Of a stretch of 64,000 bases of DNA, positions 5,223-62,030 are shown piece after piece. The notes under the pieces were generated by a model. The model made no database searches. It saw only the letters and a program-made list of their open reading frames with translations, and was not told the DNA's origin. This DNA is from Candidatus Bathyarchaeota archaeon (GTDB lineage Archaea > Thermoproteota > Bathyarchaeia > Bathyarchaeales > Bathycorpusculaceae). The stretch is from the NCBI GenBank assembly GCA_963782525.1, contig CAWAKC010000007.1, positions 1 through 64,000 on the forward strand. The letters run 5' to 3'. The translations under genes were made by a program, and so were the position numbers. Position 1 is the stretch's first letter; each line of letters opens with the position of its first letter.

Positions 5223-6530
5223 GTGGGCTTAAGAAACTTCATTGAACAACTCCAAAACAAGGGTGAATTAACAAAGATTACAAAGCCTGTCTCAACCGAG
5301 TATGAGATGGCAGGCATTATCGCGGCTTTAGGCGAGAAACCAGTTTATTTTGAGAATGTTAAAGAATCAAGCGTCCCAGTCGTAGCAGGGCTGGTTTCTT
5401 CCAAAGAGTTGATTTGCCGCTCAATGGGCATAACCAAAGAGCAACTTCTCCCGAAACTGCTGTCAGCCATCGAAAAGCCTATCGCACCACAAATGGTTGA
5501 GAAGGCACCTTGTCAAGAAGTTGTCGAGAAAAACGTTGATTTAACCAAGCTTCCAATCATGCATTACACTGACAAGGACGGCGGAAAATACATTGCCTCT
5601 GCAGTCGCCATCGTCAAGGACCCGCAACTGGGCAGAAACATGTGTTTCCACCGCCTAATGCTCAAAGACAAGAACCACTTTGTAGCGCGAATTGTTGAGA
5701 ACCGAGGTACAGACTCTGCTCTTAAGAAGGCTGGCGGAGAACTCGACATTGCCTTCTGTGTTGGCAACGCAACAGCGGTGCTTCTTTCAGCGGCTACAAC
5801 CCTGCCCGTGGGCACAGACGAATTGGGAATGGCAAACGCATTAGAAAAAACTGATTTGGTCAAATGCAAAACTGTGGACCTTGAAGTTCCAGCAGACAGC
5901 GAATTCATCTTTGAAGGGCGCATCACCAAAGAGAAAGCGACGGAAGGACCCTTCCTCGACTTAACAGGCATCGTTGACCGCGAACGCCAACAACCTGTAG
6001 TAGAAATCAAATGTATCACCCACCGCAAGAACCCCATCTACCAAACCATCCTCGCAGGCAAAAACGAACACAAATTCTTAATGGGTATGCCCAAAGAACC
6101 CACCATCTACAACGAAGTCGGCAAAGTCTGCCAAGTCAAAGACGTTTACGTTACGCCGGGCGGATGCAGTTGGCTCCACGCCGTTGTACAAATCAAAAAG
6201 CAGAATGCTGATGACGGCAAAAAAGCCATAGCCGCAGCGTTCAAAGGACATGGATCTCTCAAACACTGCGTCATTGTGGACGATGACATAAACATCTACG
6301 ACCCACAGGACGTGGAATGGGCAATCGCAACAAGACTACAAGCAGACAAGAACGTAGTCATCCTCTCTAACCAACCGGGTTCATCGCTTGATCCCTCAGG
6401 AGACCTCTCTGAAGGCAAAAAAGCCACAACCGCCAAAGCAGGCTTAGACGCAACCGCACCCCTCGTATCCACGGGCAAGGGCTTTAAGAAAGTGGACTAC
6501 ATCAAAGTTGACTTAAACAAATACTTGTGA
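5223..6530 (+). CDS. UbiD-family decarboxylase, likely anhydromevalonate phosphate decarboxylase
   Basis: UbiD motifs (EGPF, VDDDINIYDPQDVEWAIATR, GSSLDPS), coupled to AcnX genes. Confidence 0.85.
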   Translation: MGLRNFIEQLQNKGELTKITKPVSTEYEMAGIIAALGEKPVYFENVKESSVPVVAGLVSSKELICRSMGITKEQLLPKLLSAIEKPIAPQMVEKAPCQEVVEKNVDLTKLPIMHYTDKDGGKYIASAVAIVKDPQLGRNMCFHRLMLKDKNHFVARIVENRGTDSALKKAGGELDIAFCVGNATAVLLSAATTLPVGTDELGMANALEKTDLVKCKTVDLEVPADSEFIFEGRITKEKATEGPFLDLTGIVDRERQQPVVEIKCITHRKNPIYQTILAGKNEHKFLMGMPKEPTIYNEVGKVCQVKDVYVTPGGCSWLHAVVQIKKQNADDGKKAIAAAFKGHGSLKHCVIVDDDINIYDPQDVEWAIATRLQADKNVVILSNQPGSSLDPSGDLSEGKKATTAKAGLDATAPLVSTGKGFKKVDYIKVDLNKYL

Positions 6531-8292: not shown

Positions 8293-9096
8293 ATGAATGA
8301 TTCAAGACCCATCATCCTAAAAATTGGCGGTTCAGCCATCACCGACAAAACAGGAGAATTAGCGGCAAAAACCGAAATCATCAACCGCTTAGCAGAAGAA
8401 ATCAAGCGAGCAGACCTCGACAACCTGATTGTTGTGCATGGAGGCGGCAGTTTTGGCCATCCGACTGCACTAAAATATGGCTTAAAAGACGGTTACAATG
8501 AAGACCCAAACCAAAAACTGGGATTCGCCGAAACCCATCACGTTATGACCGTACTAAATGGCTTAGTTATGGACGCCATGATTTGGCATGAAACCGCAGC
8601 CGTAAGCATAGCACCATCATCATGCTTCTTAACGGAGAACGGAAAAATCAAGTTCTTCGACGAAACCGTCCTCAAAGCCATGCAAAAAATGAATTTCACA
8701 CCAGTCATGTATGGCGACGCCGTTTTAGATGAAAAGATAGGCTTCACCATCCTCTCAGGCGACCAACTCGTAGCCTACCTAGCCATAAAGTATAATGCAT
8801 CAAAAATTGTTGTTGGCACAGACACAGACGGCATATTCGATGCAGACCCAAAAACCAACCCAGACGCCAAACCCTACAAGAAACTCACCTTAGCCGAACT
8901 CAAAGCTATCCAGCCTAAACTTGGAAAAGCCCAAGGCAAAGACGTCACAGGCGGTATGGCAGGAAAAATATCTGCACTTATCCCAGCAGTTGAGCATGGA
9001 ATCCATATAACAGTTACAGGAGCCACAAAAGGGTTATCTATTTACAGAGCCTTAACAGACCAAAGTGTGTTAGGCACTGAAATAGAGAAGACCTAA
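8293..9096 (+). CDS. ipk: Isopentenyl phosphate kinase
   Basis: LKIGGSAITDK, VHGGGSFGH, SGD, DVTGGMAGK. Confidence 0.9.
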   Translation: MNDSRPIILKIGGSAITDKTGELAAKTEIINRLAEEIKRADLDNLIVVHGGGSFGHPTALKYGLKDGYNEDPNQKLGFAETHHVMTVLNGLVMDAMIWHETAAVSIAPSSCFLTENGKIKFFDETVLKAMQKMNFTPVMYGDAVLDEKIGFTILSGDQLVAYLAIKYNASKIVVGTDTDGIFDADPKTNPDAKPYKKLTLAELKAIQPKLGKAQGKDVTGGMAGKISALIPAVEHGIHITVTGATKGLSIYRALTDQSVLGTEIEKT

Positions 9097-14656: not shown

Positions 14657-15353
14657 TGTTCAGTTTCCCCACAGCTATGTAGAGTTCCTCGGTTTCTTCA
14701 TTCTGCCACAGGCTAACTAAGCCATCCTGCGCAAGGAATAACAGATAAATAAACATTCTCAGCGCTTCGATGCGTGTTGCGCCTTTGATCAGGGTTGAGA
14801 AATCGATTATCCCTTGACCACCCGTTTTCTCTATGAGTATAGCATAGAGTTGGTCGACTTGCAGTTCGAGTTCGGCGATGAACCTGTCGAATTGAGGCAA
14901 CAAATCGGTGACGGCTGGCAAAACTGGATGCTGCTCGACTACATGTTTTAGGCTTAAGAGTTTTTCACCCTTCAACACGTCATCCAAAACTTCGAGCAGA
15001 TGCTGGATAGTTGTGGAAGTTAACTCGTGACGCAGGGGCAGGAATAGGGGTGGCGGAACAAAATCCGTGGGAACCTTAGGCAACGCGGCAGGCGGCTCCT
15101 GCAGAGTTAGCAACAGCTTTGATTTCATTAAGTAAATCAAAGCAGAAGAATCTAATGCAACACCGGATGCTCGGAAATCGACTTTTTCGGGGAGGGTACG
15201 CTCCATCTCCGATAAGAAGGACCTGAGGAGGTATGCGATATTGACGTTCCAGGGGGTAACTTTTTCGAGTTTGCTGATTTCGAAGAGGATGTTCCAGGGT
15301 GGACGCAAGTAGAAGGGTCGTCTCATGGGAATAGTTGGTGGCGGGGAGGTCAT
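14628..15353 (-). CDS. scpA: Kleisin ScpA
   Basis: PWNVNI, YLMKSKLLL, FIYLLFLAQDG; lies between smc and scpB. Confidence 0.85.
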   Translation of the reverse strand: MTSPPPTIPMRRPFYLRPPWNILFEISKLEKVTPWNVNIAYLLRSFLSEMERTLPEKVDFRASGVALDSSALIYLMKSKLLLTLQEPPAALPKVPTDFVPPPLFLPLRHELTSTTIQHLLEVLDDVLKGEKLLSLKHVVEQHPVLPAVTDLLPQFDRFIAELELQVDQLYAILIEKTGGQGIIDFSTLIKGATRIEALRMFIYLLFLAQDGLVSLWQNEETEELYIAVGKLNIGKVEKPIS

Positions 15354-18300
15354 TGTTTGGGTGCCTCCGGTGGGAACTTTGCAGTTACTACGTTTGAGAT
15401 GCCGTTGCGTTCGTAGACTCCGTAGACTTTCTGGGCTTTGTTTACCATTTCGGGTCTGAGGCTGATGACTATGAACTGGATTTTTCCCGCTTCCTCAAGC
15501 AGCACTTCGGCGAGTTTTGTGGTGTGGAAGGCGTCTAAATGGGCGTCGACTTCGTCAAGGATGTAGAAGGCTGCGGGCGTGAAGTCTTTGAGTGAGAAAA
15601 TGAAGCTAACTGCCGAAACTGAGCGTTCGCCGCCGCTTGCACCACTGACGACAATAGAGGGTTTATTTGGGAACTGCACCAACATGTCGATGCCGCCGCT
15701 GAATGGTGTCTCAGGGTTTTCTAGCTTAAGCGTTGCTTCTCCGCCGCCCGTGAGCTTAGAAAAGTAAACTTTTAGGCTGGCGTTGATTTTCTCGAATGCA
15801 TCCATGAAGATTTTGCGTTTCTTAGATTCAATCTCATCCATGAACAGCACGATGGCTTGTTTTTCCCGTTCCAACTCGTTTAAGCGCACGGACAATTCTC
15901 GGTAACGTGAAATCTGCTCTGAATAGTGTGAGGAAGCAAGCTGATTGATGGCGCCGATGCGTTCCATTTCAAACTGCATCATTCGGATGGTGGTTTCTGC
16001 TTCCTGAACTTGCCGTGGGTTAGTTTCCAGCGGCTTCTCATACCCGAACATTCGAAGTTGACCCTGAAGCTGCTGCAAACGCAGCTGGCTGGTTTCGATA
16101 CCCAATTGCAGTTGGTTTAGAAGCCGCTCTGCCTGCTCATATTCCGTATCCAGTAACCGTAACTCAGAGTCTATGGAGTCAATTTGGGAAGTGAACTTTT
16201 TAGATTCTTCACGCGCCGAGAACACTGCCTTTGAAAGGTCAACGCGGCTCTTCTCAAGCTCGTCCGCTTCTTTCTTGATTAGGTCGCGTTCCAAAATTGC
16301 GTCGGCAACTTCCTTCTCCAGCTTTCCTTTTTGCTGGTCAATTTTGTCAAGCTGAATCTTTGTGTTCTTGTACCCTATCCTTAGAACCCGATCGAACTGT
16401 GATTGATGAGTGGAAATCTCAGTTTGAGCAGAACCCAAACGTTGCCGCAGTGTGTTTAGTTCTTCACCGACTTTTTCGCGTTGAACTTCAAGTTCTTGGA
16501 TGTGTGCGACGTCGGTTTTTAGTCTTAGTGCTGTGATTTCTGCGTGGATTTTCTGATGGTTTCGTCGGATGTTATTTCTTTCGTTTCGGTAGACATCCAT
16601 GCGGCCTTTGTAAGATGCTGCTTCACGTTCAAGTTTGCCGCCGTATTTTTCTATATGACGGACGTTAAATTGGGTTCGTTTAACGCTGCGTTTTACCCTG
16701 ATTATTTCTCTCTCGAGCATGGCGACGGATTCAGTGAGTTTTGTAATTGCGATTTTTGTGTACTCAAGTTCTTCATCGATTCCAACGATGTCAGTGCCCC
16801 GTTGAGTTAGGTGGCTCTGGAGCGCTTTAACTGCTTCATCCAAACTCTTTAGGGCGTTTTCGCTGGGAATAATCGTTGAGAAATCTATCGGTGCACGGTA
16901 ATAGCCGCTTTCAAAAGCTCCAGGCTCATACAAGTCACCGTTAACTGTGACTGCCCTGTACCCTTCGTTTGAGAGTGCAAAAGCTGTTTTGTCGTTTGAG
17001 ACAACTACGGTGTCTCCGAAGACATAGTTAATGGCAAGCGCATAAGCGTCATCATACTTCATGAGGTTAGCAAGGGGGCCGACTGTGCCTTCCTGTTTGG
17101 GGGGGTCTTTGTTTTTTATGGTGATGGCGCCTTTTAGAGGTATGATTTTGATTCTGCCCAGTTTCATGCGTCTGAGGGTTTCCATGCAGGTGAAGGCTAC
17201 GTCTATGTCTTTAACGACTAAAGCATCGAGCCAGCCTGTGGCGGCGGCATCGACAGCTTTCTTGTAGCCTTTATCAATCTTTATGAGGTTCCGTAGTCTA
17301 CCGTGGATTCCAGCGATGGCGCCAACGTCGCTCATTTCTTCGATGCCTCGAAGCGCTTTTTCTTCGTTGGCGATGGTAGCTGCGAGGTCTCTTTGTGTAG
17401 CAAACTCTACCACGGCGTCTTTAGCGGAACTCGCGATTTTCTCGGCTTCTGTGATTTCTTTTTGAACTGTTTCCTTCTGGAGTGTTTTACGTTCAATGGT
17501 GTGCTCAAGGTTTTTGAGTTGGGTTTTTTGGTCTCTTTGAACTTGTTCGAGTTCAGATAGGGATTTTTCTATTTCGACTAGGCTGGTTTGGAATTTTTCC
17601 TTTCTAACAGACAGGTTTTTGATTCTTCCAACACAAAGTCGCAGAGCAGACTTATCCTGAGTGTATTCGGAACGTAAATAGGCAACTCGTTTGACATGAC
17701 TTTCGATTTGAGCTTCTAAAGCACGTATTTTCAGGTTGTTGTCGTCGAGTCCACCCCAAAGTTGACTGGTCTCTTGCGCCAACACACCATGCGAAGCTTC
17801 TTTTTCAGCTATTTGCGCTTTTAGTTTTTCGTGTTCGCTACGGAATTGACGGATTTTTAAGCGGTTCTCCCTAATCTCATTTCTTAGGTTCTCATGTTGG
17901 GTAATGCTGTTTTCGCGGACTCGCTTGAAACTTTCAAGGCTTGATTGTCCAGAACTAATTTTCGTCGTTAATTCGGTAAGTTTAGATTTTAACTCACCAA
18001 TTTTAATTTGGACTTTTAGAACTTCTGAACCGCCCTGCTCAAGTCCTTCGCCGCTGAGTTTGCGCCAGTCACCTTCAATCTCATGACGTTTGGATCTGCG
18101 TAGGTCCCGTTGCACCTTTAATTTGTCGACTCTTTCCTTGACCTTAACGGTTTGCCCCGTGCTTTCACTTATTTTTGTGTTCATCTGGGTTATGTCGCTT
18201 GAGATTTTGACGGCTTGGAACTTCTTGGTTTCGGATTGGATGAAGTTGTAGCGTAAAAGTTGGTTACGTTCACGTTCAAGGTCGTCGAGGCGTTTTTGAA

Positions 18301-18904
18301 CTTCATCGATTCTGCCCATTGCGGTTCGAATTGAAATATCTGCGGCACGCAGTTTCTCTTCTGCTTCAATCTTTTCATCGTCGTATTGGGCGATGCCAAT
18401 AAGGTCTTCGATGATTTTTCTTCGCTCAAGCGGATTTACATCGGTTAACCTTGTGATTGTGCCTTGAGGTATGATGTTTTGGCTCATGCTACTGATTGCA
18501 GCCATAGAAAGGGTTTCAGTTACGTGGGCGCGTGACATCCTTCGCCCATTTAATCGGTAAACGCTCTGTCCGTTGCGATAAACTTCCCGCGAAATTGTAA
18601 CGGTGGTTGTGTCAACGGGCATCAAGCCATCTGTATTGTCGAATTGGACCACGACTTTAGCCATCTTTGCTTTTTCTTGCCCAGCCTTTTCGGAGCCGTG
18701 AAAAATCAGTTTAGCAGAATTTTCTGCGCGGAGCCTTCTTGTACTAAGTTCTCCAAGAGAGAAAAGCAAAGCGTCCATTATGTTGGTTTTGCCGCTTCCG
18801 TTGGGTCCAGTGATGGCTGTAAAACCTTTATCGAGGTTTACCTTAACTGTCTGTGGCCCAAAAGACTTAAAGCCTTTTAACTCGATTTTTTTTATGAAGG
18901 GCAT
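15350..18904 (-). CDS. smc: Chromosome segregation protein SMC
   Basis: GPNGSGKTN Walker A, long coiled coils, hinge, SGGE signature, LDEVDAHLD. Confidence 0.97.
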   Translation of the reverse strand: MPFIKKIELKGFKSFGPQTVKVNLDKGFTAITGPNGSGKTNIMDALLFSLGELSTRRLRAENSAKLIFHGSEKAGQEKAKMAKVVVQFDNTDGLMPVDTTTVTISREVYRNGQSVYRLNGRRMSRAHVTETLSMAAISSMSQNIIPQGTITRLTDVNPLERRKIIEDLIGIAQYDDEKIEAEEKLRAADISIRTAMGRIDEVQKRLDDLERERNQLLRYNFIQSETKKFQAVKISSDITQMNTKISESTGQTVKVKERVDKLKVQRDLRRSKRHEIEGDWRKLSGEGLEQGGSEVLKVQIKIGELKSKLTELTTKISSGQSSLESFKRVRENSITQHENLRNEIRENRLKIRQFRSEHEKLKAQIAEKEASHGVLAQETSQLWGGLDDNNLKIRALEAQIESHVKRVAYLRSEYTQDKSALRLCVGRIKNLSVRKEKFQTSLVEIEKSLSELEQVQRDQKTQLKNLEHTIERKTLQKETVQKEITEAEKIASSAKDAVVEFATQRDLAATIANEEKALRGIEEMSDVGAIAGIHGRLRNLIKIDKGYKKAVDAAATGWLDALVVKDIDVAFTCMETLRRMKLGRIKIIPLKGAITIKNKDPPKQEGTVGPLANLMKYDDAYALAINYVFGDTVVVSNDKTAFALSNEGYRAVTVNGDLYEPGAFESGYYRAPIDFSTIIPSENALKSLDEAVKALQSHLTQRGTDIVGIDEELEYTKIAITKLTESVAMLEREIIRVKRSVKRTQFNVRHIEKYGGKLEREAASYKGRMDVYRNERNNIRRNHQKIHAEITALRLKTDVAHIQELEVQREKVGEELNTLRQRLGSAQTEISTHQSQFDRVLRIGYKNTKIQLDKIDQQKGKLEKEVADAILERDLIKKEADELEKSRVDLSKAVFSAREESKKFTSQIDSIDSELRLLDTEYEQAERLLNQLQLGIETSQLRLQQLQGQLRMFGYEKPLETNPRQVQEAETTIRMMQFEMERIGAINQLASSHYSEQISRYRELSVRLNELEREKQAIVLFMDEIESKKRKIFMDAFEKINASLKVYFSKLTGGGEATLKLENPETPFSGGIDMLVQFPNKPSIVVSGASGGERSVSAVSFIFSLKDFTPAAFYILDEVDAHLDAFHTTKLAEVLLEEAGKIQFIVISLRPEMVNKAQKVYGVYERNGISNVVTAKFPPEAPKQ

Positions 18905-19021: not shown

Positions 19022-19405
19022 CTATAGATTCGAGAACCTTTTAGGTTTTTTGTAAAAATGCATTTGCGTTCCGTTGAAAATCATTTCGTCGTATTTTATC
19101 CAGCCTGCAATGCCAAGTTTTTTGATTTCATCAGGAGTCGTTGCGGAAGTCACTTCGAAATCGTCATCTTCTAAGTTGAGCATCTGAATGTACTTCATTG
19201 TGCTGTCAACACGTTTATGCCGCAGGATTTGTTTGACTTTTAGCACGTTGCCGTTTGTGTAGTGCGCCAACATGCTTCCACCCCAATGCCTGAAGGTTCT
19301 AAGTTCAATGGATAGTAGTCGTGGGTTCTGGTGTATGTGGGCATATCTTTTGCGCATGCGATTGTAAGTATCATGGATTACGCCGCAGGTTGTTGGGAAG
19401 AATAG
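19022..19405 (-). pseudogene. Tyrosine recombinase/integrase C-terminal fragment
   Basis: LFFPTT...LRTFRHW...ILRHKRVDSTMKY (catalytic R, H, Y region). Frame closed by TGA just upstream; N-terminal part missing. Confidence 0.85.
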
Positions 19406-19579
19406 CTTTTTTCAGACAAGCCTTGGCCCTTCTCGCTATGGGGGGCAAAATGGCGAAGGCCTTCAAAAAACCGAGGCACCGTAACTATAGCGACGTTATA
19501 GGCCTGCCGTCCCGCCATTTCAGACAACACAAATCTTATATTAAATCGTAAGGCACATATGCCCCTAAGGAAACACGAA

Positions 19580-19951
19580 ATGTCAGAAACACGACAGTTA
19601 GGAATAGCTTTAGTCATCATCGGCGGACTTGTTCTAGCCGGAGCTGCTTTTGCATATGCGTATCAAGAAACAACAACAGAAACTATCCCCGAATTCAGCT
19701 TTGGCGGCATTCAAGTAACTCAACCCACGTATTACGATGTCACGACAACGCCGTATAAAGATTATGCCGTTCCCTTGATTATAGGAAGCGTTGCTTTGTT
19801 CGTTGTCGGCTTTGCCCTCATGTTCAGCCAATCCCGAAATCTCGCCCCCGCCGCCCCAAGGTCAACCTCAACTGTACCAGTCTATCCCTTGACAGGCTTG
19901 GGCAAGGCACACAGTGGAAAGACGTCAAGGTTTCCTCTTCGGCTGTTTTGA
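19580..19951 (+). CDS. Small two-TM membrane protein
   Basis: Two hydrophobic segments. The 3' end overlaps an opposite-strand gene and may be read-through. Confidence 0.6.
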   Translation: MSETRQLGIALVIIGGLVLAGAAFAYAYQETTTETIPEFSFGGIQVTQPTYYDVTTTPYKDYAVPLIIGSVALFVVGFALMFSQSRNLAPAAPRSTSTVPVYPLTGLGKAHSGKTSRFPLRLF

Positions 19952-20027
19952 GGCCTAGGAACTTAAGCACTCTCCGCTGAGCTTCAGGTGTCAGGTCGCT
20001 CAGGTAAATCTCAAGCTCGTCTGCCAC
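19882..20027 (-). pseudogene. Small virus-like hypothetical protein with 1-nt frameshift
   Basis: GTG start MADELEIYLSDLTPEAQRRVLKFLGLKTAEE, then shifted frame NLDVFPLCALPKPVKG*. Span is 146 nt (3n-1). Confidence 0.5.
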
Positions 20028-20172
20028 GCTCCAAAACCTTGATTTCTGTTTGGGTTTTAACCGAGTAAACACATCCGCAATCGGGGCATTTGAATTGGGC
20101 AATCCGCAGATTCCCAGAGTATGTGAATCCGAAAAACTTAGGGTTTAAGGCGTGGCATTCTGGGCAGGTCAT
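20011..20172 (-). CDS. Small zinc-ribbon protein (53 aa, not in ORF track)
   Basis: MTCPECHALNPKFFGFTYSGNLRIAQFKCPDCGCVYSVK...; two CxxC motifs, GGAGG upstream. Confidence 0.75.
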   Translation of the reverse strand: MTCPECHALNPKFFGFTYSGNLRIAQFKCPDCGCVYSVKTQTEIKVLERGRRA

Positions 20173-20299
20173 TCCGGCGCCTCCATGAACATCCGCTCTA
20201 TCCTGTTCGTGCTTGGTGATTCTTTATGCCGAATACATTGTAATGGAAAAATTGTTGTCTTTAGGCTTCAAAGCAATGCATAATAAGGAAAAGATACAA

Positions 20300-20768
20300 A
20301 AGGCGGTGAATGTTGGCCTAAAGACTTGAGACGCGATTCGGTTGATATCTGCATTTTATCATCCGATCAGCCTAAAGGCGTTGAGGTAAAATATTCAGGC
20401 GACTATGGAAGCGGGCATAAGGCTGGCAGATGGCAATTCCAAAATATTAGTCCAAGAAAATTTGATTTCCTCGTTTTGGTAGCTGAAGCCGAGCCAAATC
20501 GTAAGTTTTTTATTTTCACAAAAGAGGAAGCTAAAATGTATCTTCCGTTCTGCGACTGGGCGTGGAGAAGCCTACTGGCGAAAATCATCGATGGGTCGGA
20601 ATCTATGATAGTTCAGAGAATTGGCAGACAAACATGAAAATTTGGAAACCAAGACGACCAAACCCTAAAGATGCAAAAACTAAATTCATGCTTTCAGAAG
20701 CTGACTTCATATGATTTATAGCCAACAATAACGCGAACTTTGATGAAAGATGGGACAAGTTTAAGTAG
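20300..20768 (+). pseudogene. PD-(D/E)xK nuclease-like pseudogene
   Basis: VDICI...VEVK core, FDFLVLV, frameshift near 20560, internal TGA, ends FDERWDKFK*. Confidence 0.55.
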
Positions 20769-20795
20769 CTTTTTTTAAATTTAGCCATGATTCAC

Positions 20796-20934
20796 AGCGT
20801 CCAATAAAGCCAGTCGCCTATTGGTCGGACAGGATAAGTCAACCTCGAAATTATTTTTGTATTTATATCGGATAATAATATAAAACCCGAAAGATCTAAC
20901 CCCCTTCATAGGGCACCCAGATTTTGGAAGGCTT
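20796..20934. repeat. ~130-bp inverted-repeat element, copy A (left end degenerate)
   Basis: Right end ACCCAGATTTTGGAAG (20915-20930) is identical to copy C 23145-23160; T-rich core. Confidence 0.7.
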
Positions 20935-20941
20935 CAATCCA

Positions 20942-21244
20942 TTAACTCTTTTGCACGCTTGCTTTTTTAAAGACCTCAGCAATTAAATAGTTCTCGATAC
21001 GTTCAGCCTCAAGTTCAGCCACACCTTCATTTTCAGCATCAGTCTTCGAGCAATCCTTCTCAATTTTTCTATGCGTTTCCACGTGCGCCTCTATAGCTTT
21101 ACTCATAGCCTTCAAGTCAGGGACCAACAAGATTTCCCAGCCACACTCACATTTAATTGTTGACTTAGCTACATTTATGGAAACGTTTTTTTTCAAAGCA
21201 TTAGCTTTTGCAGCTTTGTCATATCTATCTTCGCGAGCTTGCAT
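20942..21244 (-). CDS. Hypothetical protein with CxC...H...H putative Zn site
   Basis: IKCECGWEILLVPDLKAMSKAIEAHVETH; GGAGG upstream. Confidence 0.7.
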   Translation of the reverse strand: MQAREDRYDKAAKANALKKNVSINVAKSTIKCECGWEILLVPDLKAMSKAIEAHVETHRKIEKDCSKTDAENEGVAELEAERIENYLIAEVFKKASVQKS

Positions 21245-21401
21245 AGTTTTCCTCCATTTCGTCTAAAGCACGGGCAAAAAAAATTCTTGTTGAACAATTA
21301 GCCATATTTGGAGCAGTAATAAAAAGGCATGTTGGCTATGGTTAGATACAACAAACAGAAAATTAAGCCCTGAGTTAACAGATAAACTTCCATAATACTC
21401 A

Positions 21402-21532
21402 AAGGCCTTCCAAAAATTGGGCGGTATAGAAACAAACAACTGCAATATTATTTGTTTGTTTTTATAGGTTCTGATGATAAGATAAAACCTGTCAAGCCGT
21501 TCCTACTATACCCCTAATCGGTGGAAGGCCTT
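21402..21532. repeat. 131-bp inverted-repeat element, copy B
   Basis: Ends AAGGCCTTCCAAAAATTGGGCGGTATAG / CTATACCCCTAATCGGTGGAAGGCCTT; core TTTTATAGGTTCTGATGATAAGATAAAACCTG. Confidence 0.85.
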
Positions 21533-21662
21533 ACGCATGCCAGAAACAGCGTACACTGATTGAACTACTTACACGACCGCTTGAAAATATTCAGGACCTA
21601 AAAAAAGTTTGGAAGTTTATTTAAGAATTTAGCTCTACCTTCTCCGAGTGAACTTCTGGCTT

Positions 21663-21851
21663 TCAACGCTCAGCCATTTTTTCATTTGCCATTTTAGCGA
21701 GTTTCTCATACATCACTTGTCTGCGTCCCCAATTTGGATCTTCCCAATGGCCATGGAAGAAATCTGTGACCCACAATATAAAATCTTGGCGATTTTTAAT
21801 GGCTGCAGGAGTTAAAGCTGCTACCTTATCGGCAATTTTAGGTGTAGACAT
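21663..21851 (-). CDS. Small hypothetical protein (possibly internally deleted)
   Basis: 62 aa, GAGG RBS, FFHGHWEDPNWGRR segment. Confidence 0.5.
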   Translation of the reverse strand: MSTPKIADKVAALTPAAIKNRQDFILWVTDFFHGHWEDPNWGRRQVMYEKLAKMANEKMAER

Positions 21852-21911
21852 ATTAAAACCTCATTAATTATATCTCTTGTCTTAATATAAAAAGTTTTAT
21901 CGTTGTTAAAA

Positions 21912-22022
21912 ATGTCAAAAAAGAGATACAGCTTTTTTCTCGGACTCACTGCTGGCGACACGCTCGAATGGCAAATGACAGACACTTCAGATGGACGCAA
22001 AGCCACAGTTAGAAAAATCTAA
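21912..22022 (+). pseudogene. Truncated AbrB/MazE/SpoVT-like DNA-binding protein
   Basis: FLGLTAGDTLEWQM...ATVRKI matches the C-terminal half of the swapped-hairpin fold; N-terminal strands absent. Confidence 0.5.
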
Positions 22023-22300
22023 AATCCGTCCACCGAAGTTCCACTCGGGCAGAAATGGTGAATCCGGACTAGGACTAGGCTCGAGCGTGTGGGCGCGTCA
22101 GAAAATTTCCCGGAAAAATTCCATGACGAACTAAACATTGTGTCAATAAAAGGACACATAGTAATTTATGGAATGTGTACACCTAAAGTCATCCCAGCAT
22201 ACATTTTAGGTGCAAAACTAAGTGATCCAAAAATTTTATAAGCAGTTGTCACGTGCATTCTATATTGAGAGTTAAGAAAACGTTTTTTGGTGGGACCTAA

Positions 22301-22918
22301 ATGTCATATACCCTTGATGATTTTAGAACGGCAGCTGCCGCCGATGGTGTGAACGTAATACCATTCTACGATCTGCGCAGAGATGCCACTTCAATTGCTG
22401 ATGAGGTGCAACGCCGAAAAGAAGATGCAAAATATGATTCGAGCACTTTTGAAAAACAAAAAGATGGTATGCTGGAAGAAATAAAGAAAAACAAGGAAAA
22501 AATTAACGACATTAGAAAACAAATTGAGGACTTTAAAAGTCAGAATCCAGACGGCAGTGTGAATACCTTTGAAGACGATATTAAGAAGTGCGAAAGGGAG
22601 ATTGAAGAGTACAACGGTAAAATTGGAGATCTGAACAATGAAATGGCAAGGGCCGTAGATGCCTTTGAGAGACTTTATAACGCCCGTGCCGGATTGCGAG
22701 AATATTTTGACAAAGCCAAAGATCAATTGAGAGACGTAAAGTCAGACCCTGCAAGGTACTTGGGAGGCAGCCCATCAGATGATGACTTGAAAAAATTGCA
22801 GGAGTATCTTAGGGTTATTGAAGGCGAGATTGAAGACGCGGAAGTAAACCACAAGGAACAAGAGGATGGCGCCAAAAAACAAATGGAAAAGTTCCGCGAA
22901 CTAATTAGAAAAACCTGA
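22301..22918 (+). CDS. Coiled-coil hypothetical protein (205 aa)
   Basis: Long charged heptad-rich ORF with TATA-like TTTTATAA upstream. Confidence 0.8.
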   Translation: MSYTLDDFRTAAAADGVNVIPFYDLRRDATSIADEVQRRKEDAKYDSSTFEKQKDGMLEEIKKNKEKINDIRKQIEDFKSQNPDGSVNTFEDDIKKCEREIEEYNGKIGDLNNEMARAVDAFERLYNARAGLREYFDKAKDQLRDVKSDPARYLGGSPSDDDLKKLQEYLRVIEGEIEDAEVNHKEQEDGAKKQMEKFRELIRKT

Positions 22919-23032
22919 ATGGTGACGCTGAATTTCGTTGCTGTGATATTATGGACAGGCATATTCCTTTAGGGCATGTCCAAAACTTTTTAGAAAAAAC
23001 TTCGGGCAAACTCAATACTGTACATGATAGGG

Positions 23033-23164
23033 AGGTCTTCCGAAAACTGAAGGGTATAGAATAGATGAGTTTGATTTTATTTATTTGATTTTTATATGTT
23101 CTGATGGTAAGACAAATCCTGAAAGACCTCTTTCCTACTATGGGACCCAGATTTTGGAAGACCT
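23033..23164. repeat. 132-bp inverted-repeat element, copy C
   Basis: Ends AGGTCTTCCGAAAACTGAAGGGTATAG / CTATGGGACCCAGATTTTGGAAGACCT; core TTTTATATGTTCTGATGGTAAGACAAATCCTG. Confidence 0.85.
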
Positions 23165-23232
23165 TGGTGCATTCGAATTCTCTGGTTCACCGCAATATCC
23201 CATTCGTTTTATACACTTAAACACATAAGCTT

Positions 23233-23348: not shown

Positions 23349-23492
23349 TTGGGCCGCATCAACATTGACATTCCAGACGAATTAGAAAGACAGCTCAGAT
23401 TAAAAACGATAGAGCAATTCGGAGGCAAAAAAGGCGATTTATCTAAAGCTATCCAAGAAGCGGTCAAAACATGGATCGACAAAAAACAATGA
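23349..23492 (+). CDS. Ribbon-helix-helix (CopG-like) protein, 47 aa (not in ORF track)
   Basis: MGRINIDIPDELERQLRLKTIEQFGGKKGDLSKAIQEAVKTWIDKKQ. Confidence 0.8.
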   Translation: MGRINIDIPDELERQLRLKTIEQFGGKKGDLSKAIQEAVKTWIDKKQ

Positions 23493-23672: not shown

Positions 23673-24422
23673 TCATTTGTTGGTTCTTTTAAGAGCTATA
23701 AAACAGAGGAAAAAGAACACGGCTCCAAAAGCAATCAGGATTAGAAAAGAGATCCATGGGAAGGGTTGGCCAAGGGCGGAAGAGCGCAAACATAAACAAG
23801 CATGTGTTAGCGGCGAAAGGTTAAGGATGGTGCTTAATGCCGTTGGAACTTGGCTTAAAGAAAAGAAGGTTCCGCTTAGAAAAGCCATGGGCAAAACGAC
23901 TAAGCTCATGAACAAAGTCATGTCCTGATGAGTCTTAGCTAACAAAGCAACTATGACACCCAAAAACGAGAATGTGAAACAAGTAACGACAAGGCTTAAT
24001 GGAAAAAGCCAACTTACCGCGGGCAAAGGCGAGAAAACGAGGCATGCCAAAAGCAAAGCTGCTGAACTCAACAGCCCACGCAGCACCCCGATTAAAGCTT
24101 TACCCACAATTATCGAAAAAGCACTGACAGGCGCCATCAAAGTCTCATCAAAACACTTGAAGAACAAGCGGTCCACATGCAACTTTAAGCCAGATGTGTT
24201 AAAAGCTGTGGTCATCGCCGTAAGTGCCAAGATTCCTGGAACAATAAACTGAAGATAACTAAATCCTTCGATGTTTGCGCCTCTTCCTAATCCATAGCCG
24301 AAAGCCAAAAGGTAGAGGATTGGCGCGACAAGCGTTAGAGCCATTGTTTTGCCCAAGTTGCGGCTTAGGAAACGCAAATCAACCCACACCACTGCATAGA
24401 TGTCTTGCAGAGTATCCATCAT
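23673..24422 (-). CDS. ABC-2 type transporter permease
   Basis: Six TM segments, YLQFIVPG, FLSGTFF, SPLTH. Confidence 0.9.
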   Translation of the reverse strand: MMDTLQDIYAVVWVDLRFLSRNLGKTMALTLVAPILYLLAFGYGLGRGANIEGFSYLQFIVPGILALTAMTTAFNTSGLKLHVDRLFFKCFDETLMAPVSAFSIIVGKALIGVLRGLLSSAALLLACLVFSPLPAVSWLFPLSLVVTCFTFSFLGVIVALLAKTHQDMTLFMSLVVLPMAFLSGTFFSLSQVPTALSTILNLSPLTHACLCLRSSALGQPFPWISFLILIAFGAVFFFLCFIALKRTNK

Positions 24423-25285
24423 TAGTCTTCGCCTACCTTTTTACCTGTTAACTCAACAAAGACGTCTTCAAGGTTTGAATCACGAATTATGATGGTTTTA
24501 TGGTCTGAAGAGAGATTCTGCACATAGCGGTTGGCGGTTTCTCGGTCAGCGAAGTGTTCATAAAGGGTAAATGAGCCGTCGACAAGAATCTCAACAGTTA
24601 CCATACCCACTTTTTGCCTAAGCTCTGAGGGTGCACCCAACGCAATTAAGTGTCCTTGATGAACGATGCCGACCCTTTGACACAACGCTTCAGCTTCCTC
24701 GATGTAATGAGTAGTCAAAAAAATTGTTGTGCCGTTTCGGCTTAAACTGCGAATTAAATCCCACATCTTACGTCGAACCTGAACATCCAACCCTACAGTA
24801 GGTTCATCAAGGAACAGCACCTTTGGCTTATGAATAAGGGCACGGGCAATCATAGCGGCTTTCTTCATTCCCCCTGATAATTCGTCAACCATCTTCTCGG
24901 TCTGCTTGGATAAGCCAACAAATTCAAGAAGCTCACCGATGCGTTGCTTGCGTTCGTTCGAGGGAATATGATGCAATCGTGCATGAAGCTCCATATTCTC
25001 TCTTAAGCTCAAATCTAAATCAAATGTTAAGTGCTGCTGTACTACACCGATCAATTCTTTGACTTTACCAGGTTCTTTTTCTACGTCAAACCCAGAAATC
25101 CAAATGGATCCTGAGGTGGGTTTGGTTAGTGTCGTGAGGACTCGGATGGTTGTGGTTTTGCCTGCACCATTGGGACCCAGAAAACCAAAGATTTCACCTG
25201 AATTAACGCTGAGGTTCAGGTCTTCTACTGCACAAACATCCTTGTATTTTTTGGTTAAGTTTCGGGTTGCAATTACCTCTTCCAA
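24422..25285 (-). CDS. ABC transporter ATP-binding protein (DrrA/NodI-like)
   Basis: GPNGAGKTT, LSGGM, LDEPT, TTHYIEEAE. Confidence 0.95.
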   Translation of the reverse strand: MEEVIATRNLTKKYKDVCAVEDLNLSVNSGEIFGFLGPNGAGKTTTIRVLTTLTKPTSGSIWISGFDVEKEPGKVKELIGVVQQHLTFDLDLSLRENMELHARLHHIPSNERKQRIGELLEFVGLSKQTEKMVDELSGGMKKAAMIARALIHKPKVLFLDEPTVGLDVQVRRKMWDLIRSLSRNGTTIFLTTHYIEEAEALCQRVGIVHQGHLIALGAPSELRQKVGMVTVEILVDGSFTLYEHFADRETANRYVQNLSSDHKTIIIRDSNLEDVFVELTGKKVGED

Positions 25286-60941: not shown

Positions 60942-62030
60942 ATGGACGTACTAATTGCGAATAACGCGCTTAAAGCAAAAGCTTTCCTTGACGAAATCGA
61001 AAGCAAGAAGCCCCTCTTCATAGCCACCATAGCAACCACAGAAACCGGAAAAATCCCAGGGTTGTCTGCGGCAGGGGCAAACCCTGATTTCACCGATTTC
61101 ACGCCTCCTGCAGATGCCGAGCTACTTTTGCTTGGCAAATGTAAATCAATCCAAGGCGTCCCAATCACACCCGACGGAATTCCGACACCTGGCTTGATTA
61201 CCATGTCAGCGCTGCATTTAGCCGACATACCCGTGCTGGTTGTAAACGGAGGAGTAAAGGTTAAGCCACAAATTCCCTACGTTGATTTAGGGGGCAACTC
61301 TGGGCGCGACATACGCACCGGCAACTCGGTTGATAATGTGGAAGAAGTAATCGAACACGCTAAGATTTTAGGTGAACAACTAGCTAAAGCGTCGGATTAC
61401 CTGGTTATCGGAGAGAGTATTCCGGGGGGCACCACAACGGCGCTCGGTGTATTGTCGGCTTTGGGCGTAAATGCACAGGGTAAAGTAAGCAGCACCCTCC
61501 CCGAAAACCCCCACAACTTAAAAGCGGAGGTGGTTGCGGCTGGTCTAAAAGCGGCAGGTGAAAAATTCGGAAGCCTAAAGGGCAACCCCATAAAAGCGGT
61601 TTCCTGTGTTGGCGACCCAATGATGGCGGCAATGGCTGGTTTAGCCATCGGTGGTGCTCGGCAGGGCCCTGTTCTGATGGCTGGTGGCACCCAAATGACC
61701 GCGGTCTTAGCAGTAATCAACGCTTTGAGTCCTGAATCTCTCTGCAACGTCGCCATCGGCACAACGCGGTGGGTTGCAAAAGACGTAAAATCCGATATCT
61801 GCGGTATAGTTAATCAATTCTGTGAGGTTCCGATTTTAGCGGCTGACTTAGACTTCGGACCCTCAAAATATCCGGGCTTACGAATCTATGAAACTGGACT
61901 AGTCAAAGAAGGCGTCGGAGCAGGTGGAGCGTCAATCGCTGCCATGGCAAAGACAGGCGGTGCAGTCACGAAGGATATACTTCTTAAGGAAATAGAACGT
62001 AACTATGCTCTACTGATGAGCAAAAAGTGA
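60942..62030 (+). CDS. cobT: Archaeal nicotinate-nucleotide--dimethylbenzimidazole phosphoribosyltransferase
   Basis: GLSAAGA, GESIPGGTTTAL, AGGTQM, KEGVGAGG. Confidence 0.9.
   Translation: MDVLIANNALKAKAFLDEIESKKPLFIATIATTETGKIPGLSAAGANPDFTDFTPPADAELLLLGKCKSIQGVPITPDGIPTPGLITMSALHLADIPVLVVNGGVKVKPQIPYVDLGGNSGRDIRTGNSVDNVEEVIEHAKILGEQLAKASDYLVIGESIPGGTTTALGVLSALGVNAQGKVSSTLPENPHNLKAEVVAAGLKAAGEKFGSLKGNPIKAVSCVGDPMMAAMAGLAIGGARQGPVLMAGGTQMTAVLAVINALSPESLCNVAIGTTRWVAKDVKSDICGIVNQFCEVPILAADLDFGPSKYPGLRIYETGLVKEGVGAGGASIAAMAKTGGAVTKDILLKEIERNYALLMSKK

Follow-up and report, generated by a model that had tools for sequence, protein, structure and literature searches.

Of the ways in which prokaryotes store and rearrange accessory genes, the cassette array is the best understood. 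To our knowledge, essentially one such system has been described, the integron with its attC sites, and the archaeal cases reported so far use it too. The pdif (dif) modules of Acinetobacter plasmids have 28-bp Xer sites and are moved by XerC/XerD, and in the tycheposons of Prochlorococcus the direct repeats are reportedly partial copies of the target tRNA. The archaeal integrons of Ghaly et al. (2022, PMC9668308) were found with attC models, have canonical folded attC sites, and carry open reading frames (ORFs) that generally lie in one orientation. Here we describe a repeat of ~133 bp, designated E, three copies of which (A, B, and C) lie between small genes in a 64,000-nucleotide stretch of a Candidatus Bathyarchaeota archaeon genome (assembly GCA_963782525.1, contig CAWAKC010000007.1, positions 1 to 64,000), referred to below as the window. 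Based on its arrays, the turnover of the genes between its copies, and the mosaic structure of the copies themselves, we consider it probable (at roughly 70%) that E is a cassette-junction repeat at which recombination shuffles cassettes. Genomes and loci of relatives are designated by G and L codes, respectively.

The three copies in the window are related full-length stretches of ~130 bp that are co-oriented on the + strand and were scored with a covariance model as follows.

20805 to 20936, + strand: element A (102 bits, model positions 1 to 135; left arm diverged)
21401 to 21533, + strand: element B (129 bits)
23031 to 23166, + strand: element C (131 bits)

The evidence for the repeats of the window comes from the sequence, a repeat finder, and alignment. 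B and C are 72% identical over 136 nt (blastn E value of 5e-12, with the whole 2.87-Mb genome searched). The element consists of imperfect inverted arms of ~20 nt at its ends and a conserved asymmetric core, TTTTATATGTTCTGATGATAAG, and the consensus of the aligned copies is AAAGGTCTTTCGCGAATTGG-ACGGTATAGGATAAGTCAAGCC-(A/T-rich)-TTTTATATGTTCTGATGATAAGATAAAACC-GAAAGACCTTTCC-TCTATGG-CCCAGATTTTGGAAGGCCTT. The core is the best-conserved segment, with a mean pairwise distance of 0.26 versus 0.39 to 0.43 for the arms and the flanking interior. A preliminary description of this DNA had assigned B and C imperfect terminal inverted repeats of ~27 bp; the inverted arms are present, but the repeat finder measures them at 20 nt with 80% complementarity in B and 17 nt with 88% in C. 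The same description had A sharing an identical right end with C, which is correct (the run ACCCAGATTTTGGAAG is common to both), but by the covariance model A is a full-length copy and not just a right end. The common orientation that it gave for all three copies agrees with the model. When folded as single strands, B and C are much better than shuffled sequences (z scores of −5.6 and −3.5, respectively), while A is no better (z score of −0.11).

To determine the extent of the family, we used a covariance model (R1) and an nhmmer profile, both built from six copies of E in the same genome. These six are the full-length copies of that genome, and a few degenerate copies accompany them: three are in the window, two are on contig C2 (33271 to 33403 on the − strand and 61894 to 62023), and one is on contig C11 (113295 to 113425). 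In a first draw of 61 genomes, E was matched in 15. These include 14 of 36 other members of the genus, and none of the 24 genomes drawn from eleven further families of the order has a match. Among 120 species genomes of the genus, 60 carry E (covariance model, E value of ≤1e-4); counts of E per genome are lower bounds, since at most 27 candidates in each genome were scored. A core-word scan of all species genomes gave matches mostly in Candidatus Bathyarchaeota or Bathyarchaeia records, and in metagenomes there are 84 model matches on 37 contigs that were picked by a 28-nt core word. The repeats of the window are not a chance resemblance, since this genome has additional full-length copies and its relatives have hundreds. 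Such a scan of this genome and its relatives had been proposed in the preliminary description, and the further copies that it found lie in co-oriented arrays.

Several other identities for E were considered and rejected. With respect to a viral origin, an exact 21-mer has 0 matches among IMG/VR viral contigs, and none of the 7 IMG/VR matches to a degenerate 19-mer fits the model. In Rfam 15, only tRNA-Glu reaches the gathering score within the window, and there are 0 matches at an E value of ≤1 over an array segment that contains three copies of E (L036, 11850 to 12950). E is not tRNA-like, having no ARAGORN or Rfam match. A hammerhead or C/D-box reading of its CTGATGA motif, considered by eye, was dropped because Rfam offers no match and the alignment shows no conservation of the partner motifs. 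Among the top-ranked matches in the published literature on Bathyarchaeia mobile elements or cassettes, we found no description of the repeat.

Copies of E cluster on one strand. The array of G016:C5 packs seven copies into 5.3 kb; G002:C3 also has seven, G103:C6 has eight, and G085:C23 has five, and the densest arrays have up to 8 copies within 6 kb. For elements of ≥40 bits at the genome loci, neighboring pairs no more than 5 kb apart are on the same strand in 48 cases and on opposite strands in 1. With the metagenome contigs included (147 elements), 87 of 88 such pairs are co-oriented; this set is redundant, with at least three of its arrays entered two or three times. The spacing from one E to the next has a median of 591 nt and ranges from 165 to 4259 nt. 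In contrast with the uniform direction of the repeats, the direction of the flanking genes is independent of that of E: the right-hand neighbor is co-oriented in 25 cases and antiparallel in 33, with none within 200 nt in 15, and the left-hand neighbor is co-oriented in 34 and antiparallel in 29, with none within 200 nt in 10. Fourteen of the 33 antiparallel right-hand genes end within 20 nt of E.

The content of these arrays turns over between arrays and between species; the preliminary description had proposed a test for variation of the genes between elements among strains. As refuting outcomes it had named copies scattered singly, or just these three with no gene turnover, and neither pattern was found. 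When the 87 inter-element stretches of 38 arrays are grouped by sequence, they form 56 families, of which 13 recur; the recurrent cassettes vary among arrays in both neighbors and order. The DUF5752 cassette, for example, has four different downstream neighbors, and the ribbon-helix-helix (RHH), Zn-protein, and noncoding F5 cassettes likewise have varying neighbors. Cassette genes range over Alba, metallo-beta-lactamase, histidine kinase, AIPR, LURP-one-related (LOR), DUF5752, and a 974-aa PQQ propeller; the commonest are of small DNA-binding types, namely, HTH_45 (10 in the first 16 loci), CxC...HxxxH (10), and RHH. Cassettes abut E flush, and in two contexts the DUF5752 ORF borrows its stop codon (TAA or TGA) from the opening bases of the next element (L036, 12382 to 12768; L037, 15903 to 16290; and homologues). 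Genes found as single cassettes between two elements include one of the AIPR abortive-infection type (L046, 7058 to 8818), one with a metallo-beta-lactamase fold (L042, 7270 to 7860), and Alba (L036, 7840 to 8154).

Turnover is also evident at the site occupied in the window, where the 4.7-kb stretch with A, B, and C sits between an SMC gene (15350 to 18904, − strand) and a pair of ABC-transporter genes (23673 to 25285, − strand). Across relatives, this SMC-ABC gap is 162 nt in G137, 0.5 kb in G127, 10.3 kb in G023, and 13.6 kb in G104, whose SMC end is 94% identical to that of the window. The G010 gap holds a cut-down integrase remnant only, and the G023 site holds four elements with other cassettes. 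We conclude that the SMC-ABC site of the window is an insertion hot spot.

Homology between shared cassettes extends into E and ends inside it. When the DUF5752 cassette is aligned from five contexts, high identity runs from the right end of the upstream element through the ORF and ~45 nt into the downstream element, and an unusual left-arm variant is common to all five contexts. The RHH and LOR cassettes bring along the portion of E from about position 47 onward. When E is divided into five segments, the between-copy distances of the segments are essentially uncorrelated (Mantel r of −0.07 to 0.21), and the copies are therefore mosaics. We located the junctions by pairwise change-point analysis of all pairs that have one homologous flank (18 right-linked and 16 left-linked). 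The right-linked starts are at positions 37, 44, 47, 47, 60, 77, 96, 101 (three times), 107, 108, 116 to 120 (five times), and 134, and the left-linked ends are at 0 to 14 (five), 73 to 88 (nine), 107, and 119. An early impression of a single junction at ~45 to 50 or ~92 to 100 was overturned by this larger analysis.

In comparison with integrons, the shared features are co-oriented repeats (~60 to 140 bp) between short, unrelated, shuffled cassettes that are flush with the site, a tyrosine recombinase gene divergent from the start of the array, and many arrays without an intact integrase, like the clusters of attC sites lacking integron integrases (CALINs). E is nevertheless not an attC site, as R boxes, arm covariation, and a fixed crossover are all lacking. 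None of 121 distinct copies has both RYYYAAC and GTTRRRY on either strand, in agreement with the preliminary description, which had noted the lack of these cores; RYYYAAC is present in the first 35 nt of 0 of the 121 copies, and GTTRRRY is present in the last 35 nt of 1. Arm pairing within a copy is no better than between copies, at 8.31 versus 8.21 for 45 copies (permutation P value of 0.39) and 8.51 versus 8.45 for all pairs among 67 copies (P value of 0.44). For the two arms on either side of a cassette, the pair that would meet in an excised circle, the value is 8.67 versus 8.45 for all pairs (P value of 0.43; 67 copies). The RNAalifold consensus fold is just a 7-bp terminal stem. Because there is no covariation, we consider the arms to be consensus sequences of the kind that a protein binding duplex DNA would be expected to recognize. 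A folded RNA or single-strand DNA hairpin was rejected on the same grounds, since B and C fold well but the family lacks arm covariation, and a compensatory change between B and C is anecdotal as evidence of structure. In sum, E differs from integron sites in being sequence conserved rather than fold conserved, with no R''/R' boxes, and its neighboring integrases lie beside tRNA genes, like island integrases.

Two other systems share part of this organization. The pdif modules resemble E cassettes in being small accessory modules bounded by short recombination sites and shuffled among replicons. If the arms are the true sites of E, then site orientation alternates along the array, as it does for pdif. 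E differs in its length of 133 bp, with an asymmetric core between the arms, and in its archaeal host, and no Xer-type site layout was identified in it. Tycheposons, like the islands of E, are reportedly hypervariable islands at tRNA genes with integrases, integrase remnants, and cargo between direct repeats; unlike their repeats, E is not tRNA-like, and it recurs every ~0.2 to 2 kb, far denser than whole integrative elements. A further difference from the archaeal integrons of PMC9668308 is that the ORFs of E arrays point either way.

The remaining features of the array in the window are as follows.

19022 to 19357, − strand: integrase remnant, C-terminal third (aa ~269 to 392), left of the array and antiparallel to the elements
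19358 to 20804, no strand: pre-element island DNA with small ORFs (130-aa membrane protein, 53-aa Zn ribbon, 92 aa, and 103 aa)
20942 to 21244, − strand: cassette gene for a CxC...HxxxH small protein; its stop codon is 6 nt from the right end of A
21543 to 21563, + strand: motif M (ACAGCGTACACTG...), 10 nt past the right end of B
21663 to 21851, − strand: 62-aa ORF of the second cassette, no known family
22024 to 22121, no strand: integrase 5'-region remnant, 79% nucleotide identity to L041 13965 to 14063
22301 to 22918, + strand: 205-aa coiled-coil ORF of the second cassette, weak coiled-coil Pfam matches only
22974 to 23030, + strand: conserved left extension of C, containing the M-like motif ACTGTACATGATAGGG
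23349 to 23492, + strand: RHH gene of the last cassette, following C in the same direction (Pfam RHH_6, E value of 5e-6)

The ORFs of the 19358 to 20804 segment have weak or no Pfam matches, and G137, G010, and G127 lack this segment at their orthologous sites. The L041 sequence matched by the 5'-region remnant is the start region of an integrase pseudogene that abuts an element in G016. The left extension of C is also found in L042 (6084 to 6141), L041 (13975 to 13932), and L060 (from 7766 to the left end of its element), and the layout of an element followed by an RHH gene is repeated on contig C2 of the same genome and in L037, L038, and L044. Among the gene labels given earlier, RHH, CxC, and coiled-coil hold, but the putative nuclease (20326 to 20637) and AbrB fragment (22089 to 22241) have no Pfam match at an E value of ≤0.1.

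Motif M is a near-palindrome, ACAGCGTACAYTG-N3-GGGC, that lies directly before the left arm of E or ~10 nt after its right end, on the strand of E. It was defined post hoc from its sites at 21543 to 21563 and 22992 to 23030 of the window, L041 13932 to 13953, and L045 6526 to 6546. The ten best matches in the array loci are all in one of these two positions; nine are on the strand of E, and one is an opposite-strand reading of a palindromic site. The F5 cassette is a conserved noncoding unit of 165 to 182 nt between two elements (L036, 12067 to 12248; L186, 2232 to 2411; L210, 4724 to 4890; L211, 205 to 369). Within it, a G+C-rich stretch leads into a T run, and 3 of 4 copies end in motif M; the unit may be a small RNA gene and has no Rfam match at an E value of ≤1.

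The CxC...HxxxH family has 12 matches in this genome (in the window and spread over contigs C2, C9, C8, and C11), up to 18 per genome, and members in 87 of the 120 genus genomes. In five loci the 3' end of the gene is 6 to 18 nt from the right end of E, and in four loci examined it is divergently paired with an HTH_45 gene. An AlphaFold model of the protein (mean pLDDT of 69) had 0 Foldseek matches in the PDB at an E value of ≤0.001. By hand tally, the family is present in 55 of 60 E-bearing genomes versus 32 of 60 E-free genomes, which are relatives and thus not independent. Its presence in so many E-free genomes makes its range wider than that of E, and we rejected it as a phyletic partner of the repeat. 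Contig C2 of this genome (116 kb) has the lowest G+C content of the 12 contigs (0.41) and carries two elements, five CxC genes, and two RHH paralogues, from which it may be largely accessory DNA.

In 15 of 58 loci, many of them short contigs, integrase genes or pieces of them occur no more than 5 kb from E, and most of these genes are decayed. Eighteen of the 20 pieces run opposite to E. Thirteen are on its left, with their 5' side toward the left arm of the first element, and these are cut off at varied positions (aa 9, 60, 88, 234, 294, and 352). In G103, an intact 386-aa integrase gene, at L065 7246 to 8406 on the − strand, lies beside tRNA-Leu, with E 18 nt upstream of its start, and in G016:C4 a near-full-length integrase pseudogene abuts an element with motif M in between. 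The left arm of an element is 38 to 39 nt from the 3' end of tRNA-Thr or tRNA-Cys in G016:C5 and G023:C11, where the spacer resembles M, and in L211 and L218 the integrase is beside tRNA-Ala and tRNA-Arg. The window does not have this arrangement of an integrase beside a tRNA gene at its border. Array-side integrases match Pfam Phage_integrase (E value of 9e-12) or, weakly and below the curated cutoff, Phage_integr_3 (E value of 7.5e-4). In L047, C-terminal (6321 to 6479) and N-terminal (8862 to 8966) integrase fragments on the same strand flank a two-element array, as if the array had replaced the middle of an integrase gene.

The ORF at 19022 to 19357 has no Pfam match, but its translation is 47 to 51% identical to aa 269 to 392 of intact integrases of the same genome (tblastn), which bears out its earlier identification as a tyrosine recombinase remnant. 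This SMC-side remnant is common to many species of the genus (L049 to L053 and L056) in varying states of decay. In G064 it survives as an intact 111-aa ORF (84% identity); stop codons interrupt it in G010 and G103, and the copies of G127 and G023 are truncated. Based on its presence in many species and the intact ORF in G064, we conclude that the insertion beside SMC is old. The preliminary description had also proposed to test whether copies cluster in arrays near intact relatives of this integrase; integrase genes or remnants do lie beside many arrays, but the intact relatives themselves rarely have E nearby (see below), and the link between E and the integrase is circumstantial.

Taken together, these observations suggest a model in which E marks where small gene cassettes meet in the hypervariable islands found in one genus of Bathyarchaeia. 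Each cassette would consist of one to a few small genes, or a noncoding unit of ~170 nt, with a co-oriented E on both sides, and recombination at or inside E would move cassettes between arrays. A resident E would then be a mosaic, its left part traveling with the left cassette and its right part with the right cassette. The islands would occupy insertion hot spots, which are the 3' ends of tRNA genes and, in the window, the SMC-ABC gap, and the least decayed of them appear to begin with a tyrosine integrase gene whose 5' end is toward the left arm of the first E. A recombinase, most plausibly the island integrase acting in cis or in trans, would bind the two inverted arms of double-stranded E, and the E of an excised circular cassette, an intermediate that we infer, would recombine with an E of the array, which would always yield direct repeats. 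Homology-dependent exchange between copies may then blur the junctions. It is a tentative proposal, to which we give slightly less than even odds, that A, B, and C are the junction sites of an undescribed integron-like cassette system with a dedicated site-specific recombinase. The earlier reading of these elements as recombination sites of a cassette array thus keeps its arrays, its turnover, and its integrase geometry, but not an attC-like folded site or a fixed exchange point.

A number of observations weigh against this model. There is no single crossover point, and the scatter of junctions holds even at 96 to 100% flank identity, which is unlike a classical tyrosine recombinase with one 6- to 8-bp overlap and keeps an explanation by homology alive; the scatter fits exchange at several places, for example, at both arms, or homology-dependent exchange in conserved blocks. 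The core gives E its direction, but the conserved TATA-like sequence within it has no role in the model. Only 1 of 30 loci of the best intact close integrase relatives has E within 1.5 kb, the integrase genes that adjoin arrays are nearly all broken, and 6 E-bearing genomes have no integrase match at an E value of ≤1e-15 (hand tally). The integrase family is present in 107 of 120 genomes, E-bearing or not, and for this reason its phyletic link to E is uninformative. The empty SMC-ABC site of G137, which we searched for an attB-like E, contains no E-like sequence. Finally, no circular or deleted forms were seen in reads, which are too shallow to reveal them: the four DNA read runs gave short, low-depth contig pieces only, with no joints, and two loose ends at 21444 and 21487 proved to be another copy of the core.

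In an alternative that would accommodate the scattered junctions, E is primarily a functional intergenic module, bound by protein and regulatory or boundary forming, with arms and core maintained through selection, and cassette shuffling is a by-product of homologous recombination or gene conversion and involves no dedicated recombinase. Exchange points are spread over E and cluster in the left arm, core, and right arm, as homologous exchange predicts; it is the sequence of arms and core that is conserved, rather than pairing, with the core the most conserved part (0.26 versus 0.39 to 0.43); and the commonest cassette genes encode small DNA-binding proteins (HTH_45, RHH, and the CxC zinc protein). 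Co-orientation is predicted as well, since a single crossover between circle and array yields direct repeats. However, copies of E that are ~60 to 75% identical, with few long identical runs, are poor substrates for homologous exchange, and this alternative leaves unexplained why every new cassette acquires an E and why the integrase has a fixed geometry. Because flanking genes start and end at E about equally often (25 versus 33 on the right and 34 versus 29 on the left), a simple promoter or terminator role does not fit. We regard it as unlikely, though deserving of serious consideration. A further alternative, in which E is a cassette-borne promoter-operator with a TATA box, an operator for the RHH, HTH, or CxC proteins of the island, and a right-arm leader, draws on the TATA-like TTTTATAT in the core and on the reverse strand, where GAAC-ATATAAAA resembles by eye the RAAASS-TTWAWA sequence found ~30 to 42 nt upstream of tRNA genes of this genome. 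RHH, LOR, DUF5752, Alba, and one integrase gene do start 18 to 60 nt past the right end of E and are co-oriented with it. On the other hand, antiparallel right-hand neighbors (33, of which 14 end within 20 nt of E) outnumber co-oriented ones (25), CxC genes always end at E, and a promoter would explain neither the terminal inverted arms nor co-orientation regardless of gene direction; we consider this alternative improbable.

By its size of ~133 bp, AT-rich interior, ~20-nt terminal inverted repeats, multiple copies, and restriction to one lineage, a single genus, E could instead be a nonautonomous transposable element inserted between island genes, like a miniature inverted-repeat transposable element (MITE), as the preliminary description had offered as its alternative. 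Such elements would be dispersed in either direction, whereas 87 of 88 neighboring pairs of E are co-oriented in arrays, and the copies are mosaics rather than lineages of whole elements. No target-site duplications were visible by eye in the flanks of 45 copies, and not one of 249 collinear flank pairs has an empty site, all gaps being 120 to 159 nt; these pairs come from the sequences gathered for array loci and not from orthologous sites genus-wide. An apparent absence of E upstream of the LOR gene in G012 turned out to be a degenerate E that retains the right arm. IS1182/IS5-type transposase genes do occur in the same islands (L001, 5691 to 7244; L041, 10529 to 11977 and 2364 to 3374), but the insertion sequences (IS) examined there have no ends that match those of E. 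The one IS copy of the array loci with identifiable terminal inverted repeats (31 nt; in L041), tried as a parent of E, has ends unrelated to its arms; there are no E-matching ends at two other IS loci examined, and in the genome of the window no longer element with the ends of E was found. With no target duplications, empty sites, or matching parent transposase found, we give this explanation only a slim chance. The preliminary description had also raised the possibility of mini-origins, and inverted arms around an AT-rich center would suit a small replication origin or iteron unit with inverted binding sites flanking an unwinding region. Arrays of up to 8 copies within 6 kb make this implausible, no Orc1/Cdc6 or Rep initiator gene turned up among 150 neighboring ORFs scanned, and the asymmetric conserved core is unlike an unwinding region; an origin is thus very unlikely indeed.

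We therefore favor the reading of E as a cassette-junction repeat. In a common archaeal genus of soil and peat, arrays that follow the logic of integrons with an unrelated, sequence-defined site are present in half of the species genomes. It is possible, although on balance doubtful, that these arrays represent a separate archaeal gene-capture platform, in which an island tyrosine recombinase would move one-gene cassettes into and out of a double-stranded, sequence-defined 133-bp site that has two inverted arms, with no single-strand folding. If this is the case, direction would be fixed by the asymmetric core, arrays would be built at tRNA genes and other hot spots, and an integron-like solution would have been reached independently with unrelated sites. 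Should a recombinase act on E, cassette capture would have a second model, gene flow in uncultivated Bathyarchaeia would become easier to study, and a small recombination site with a built-in direction might be put to use as a tool. Even if exchange is merely homology driven, E explains where and how the hypervariable islands of these archaea are rebuilt.

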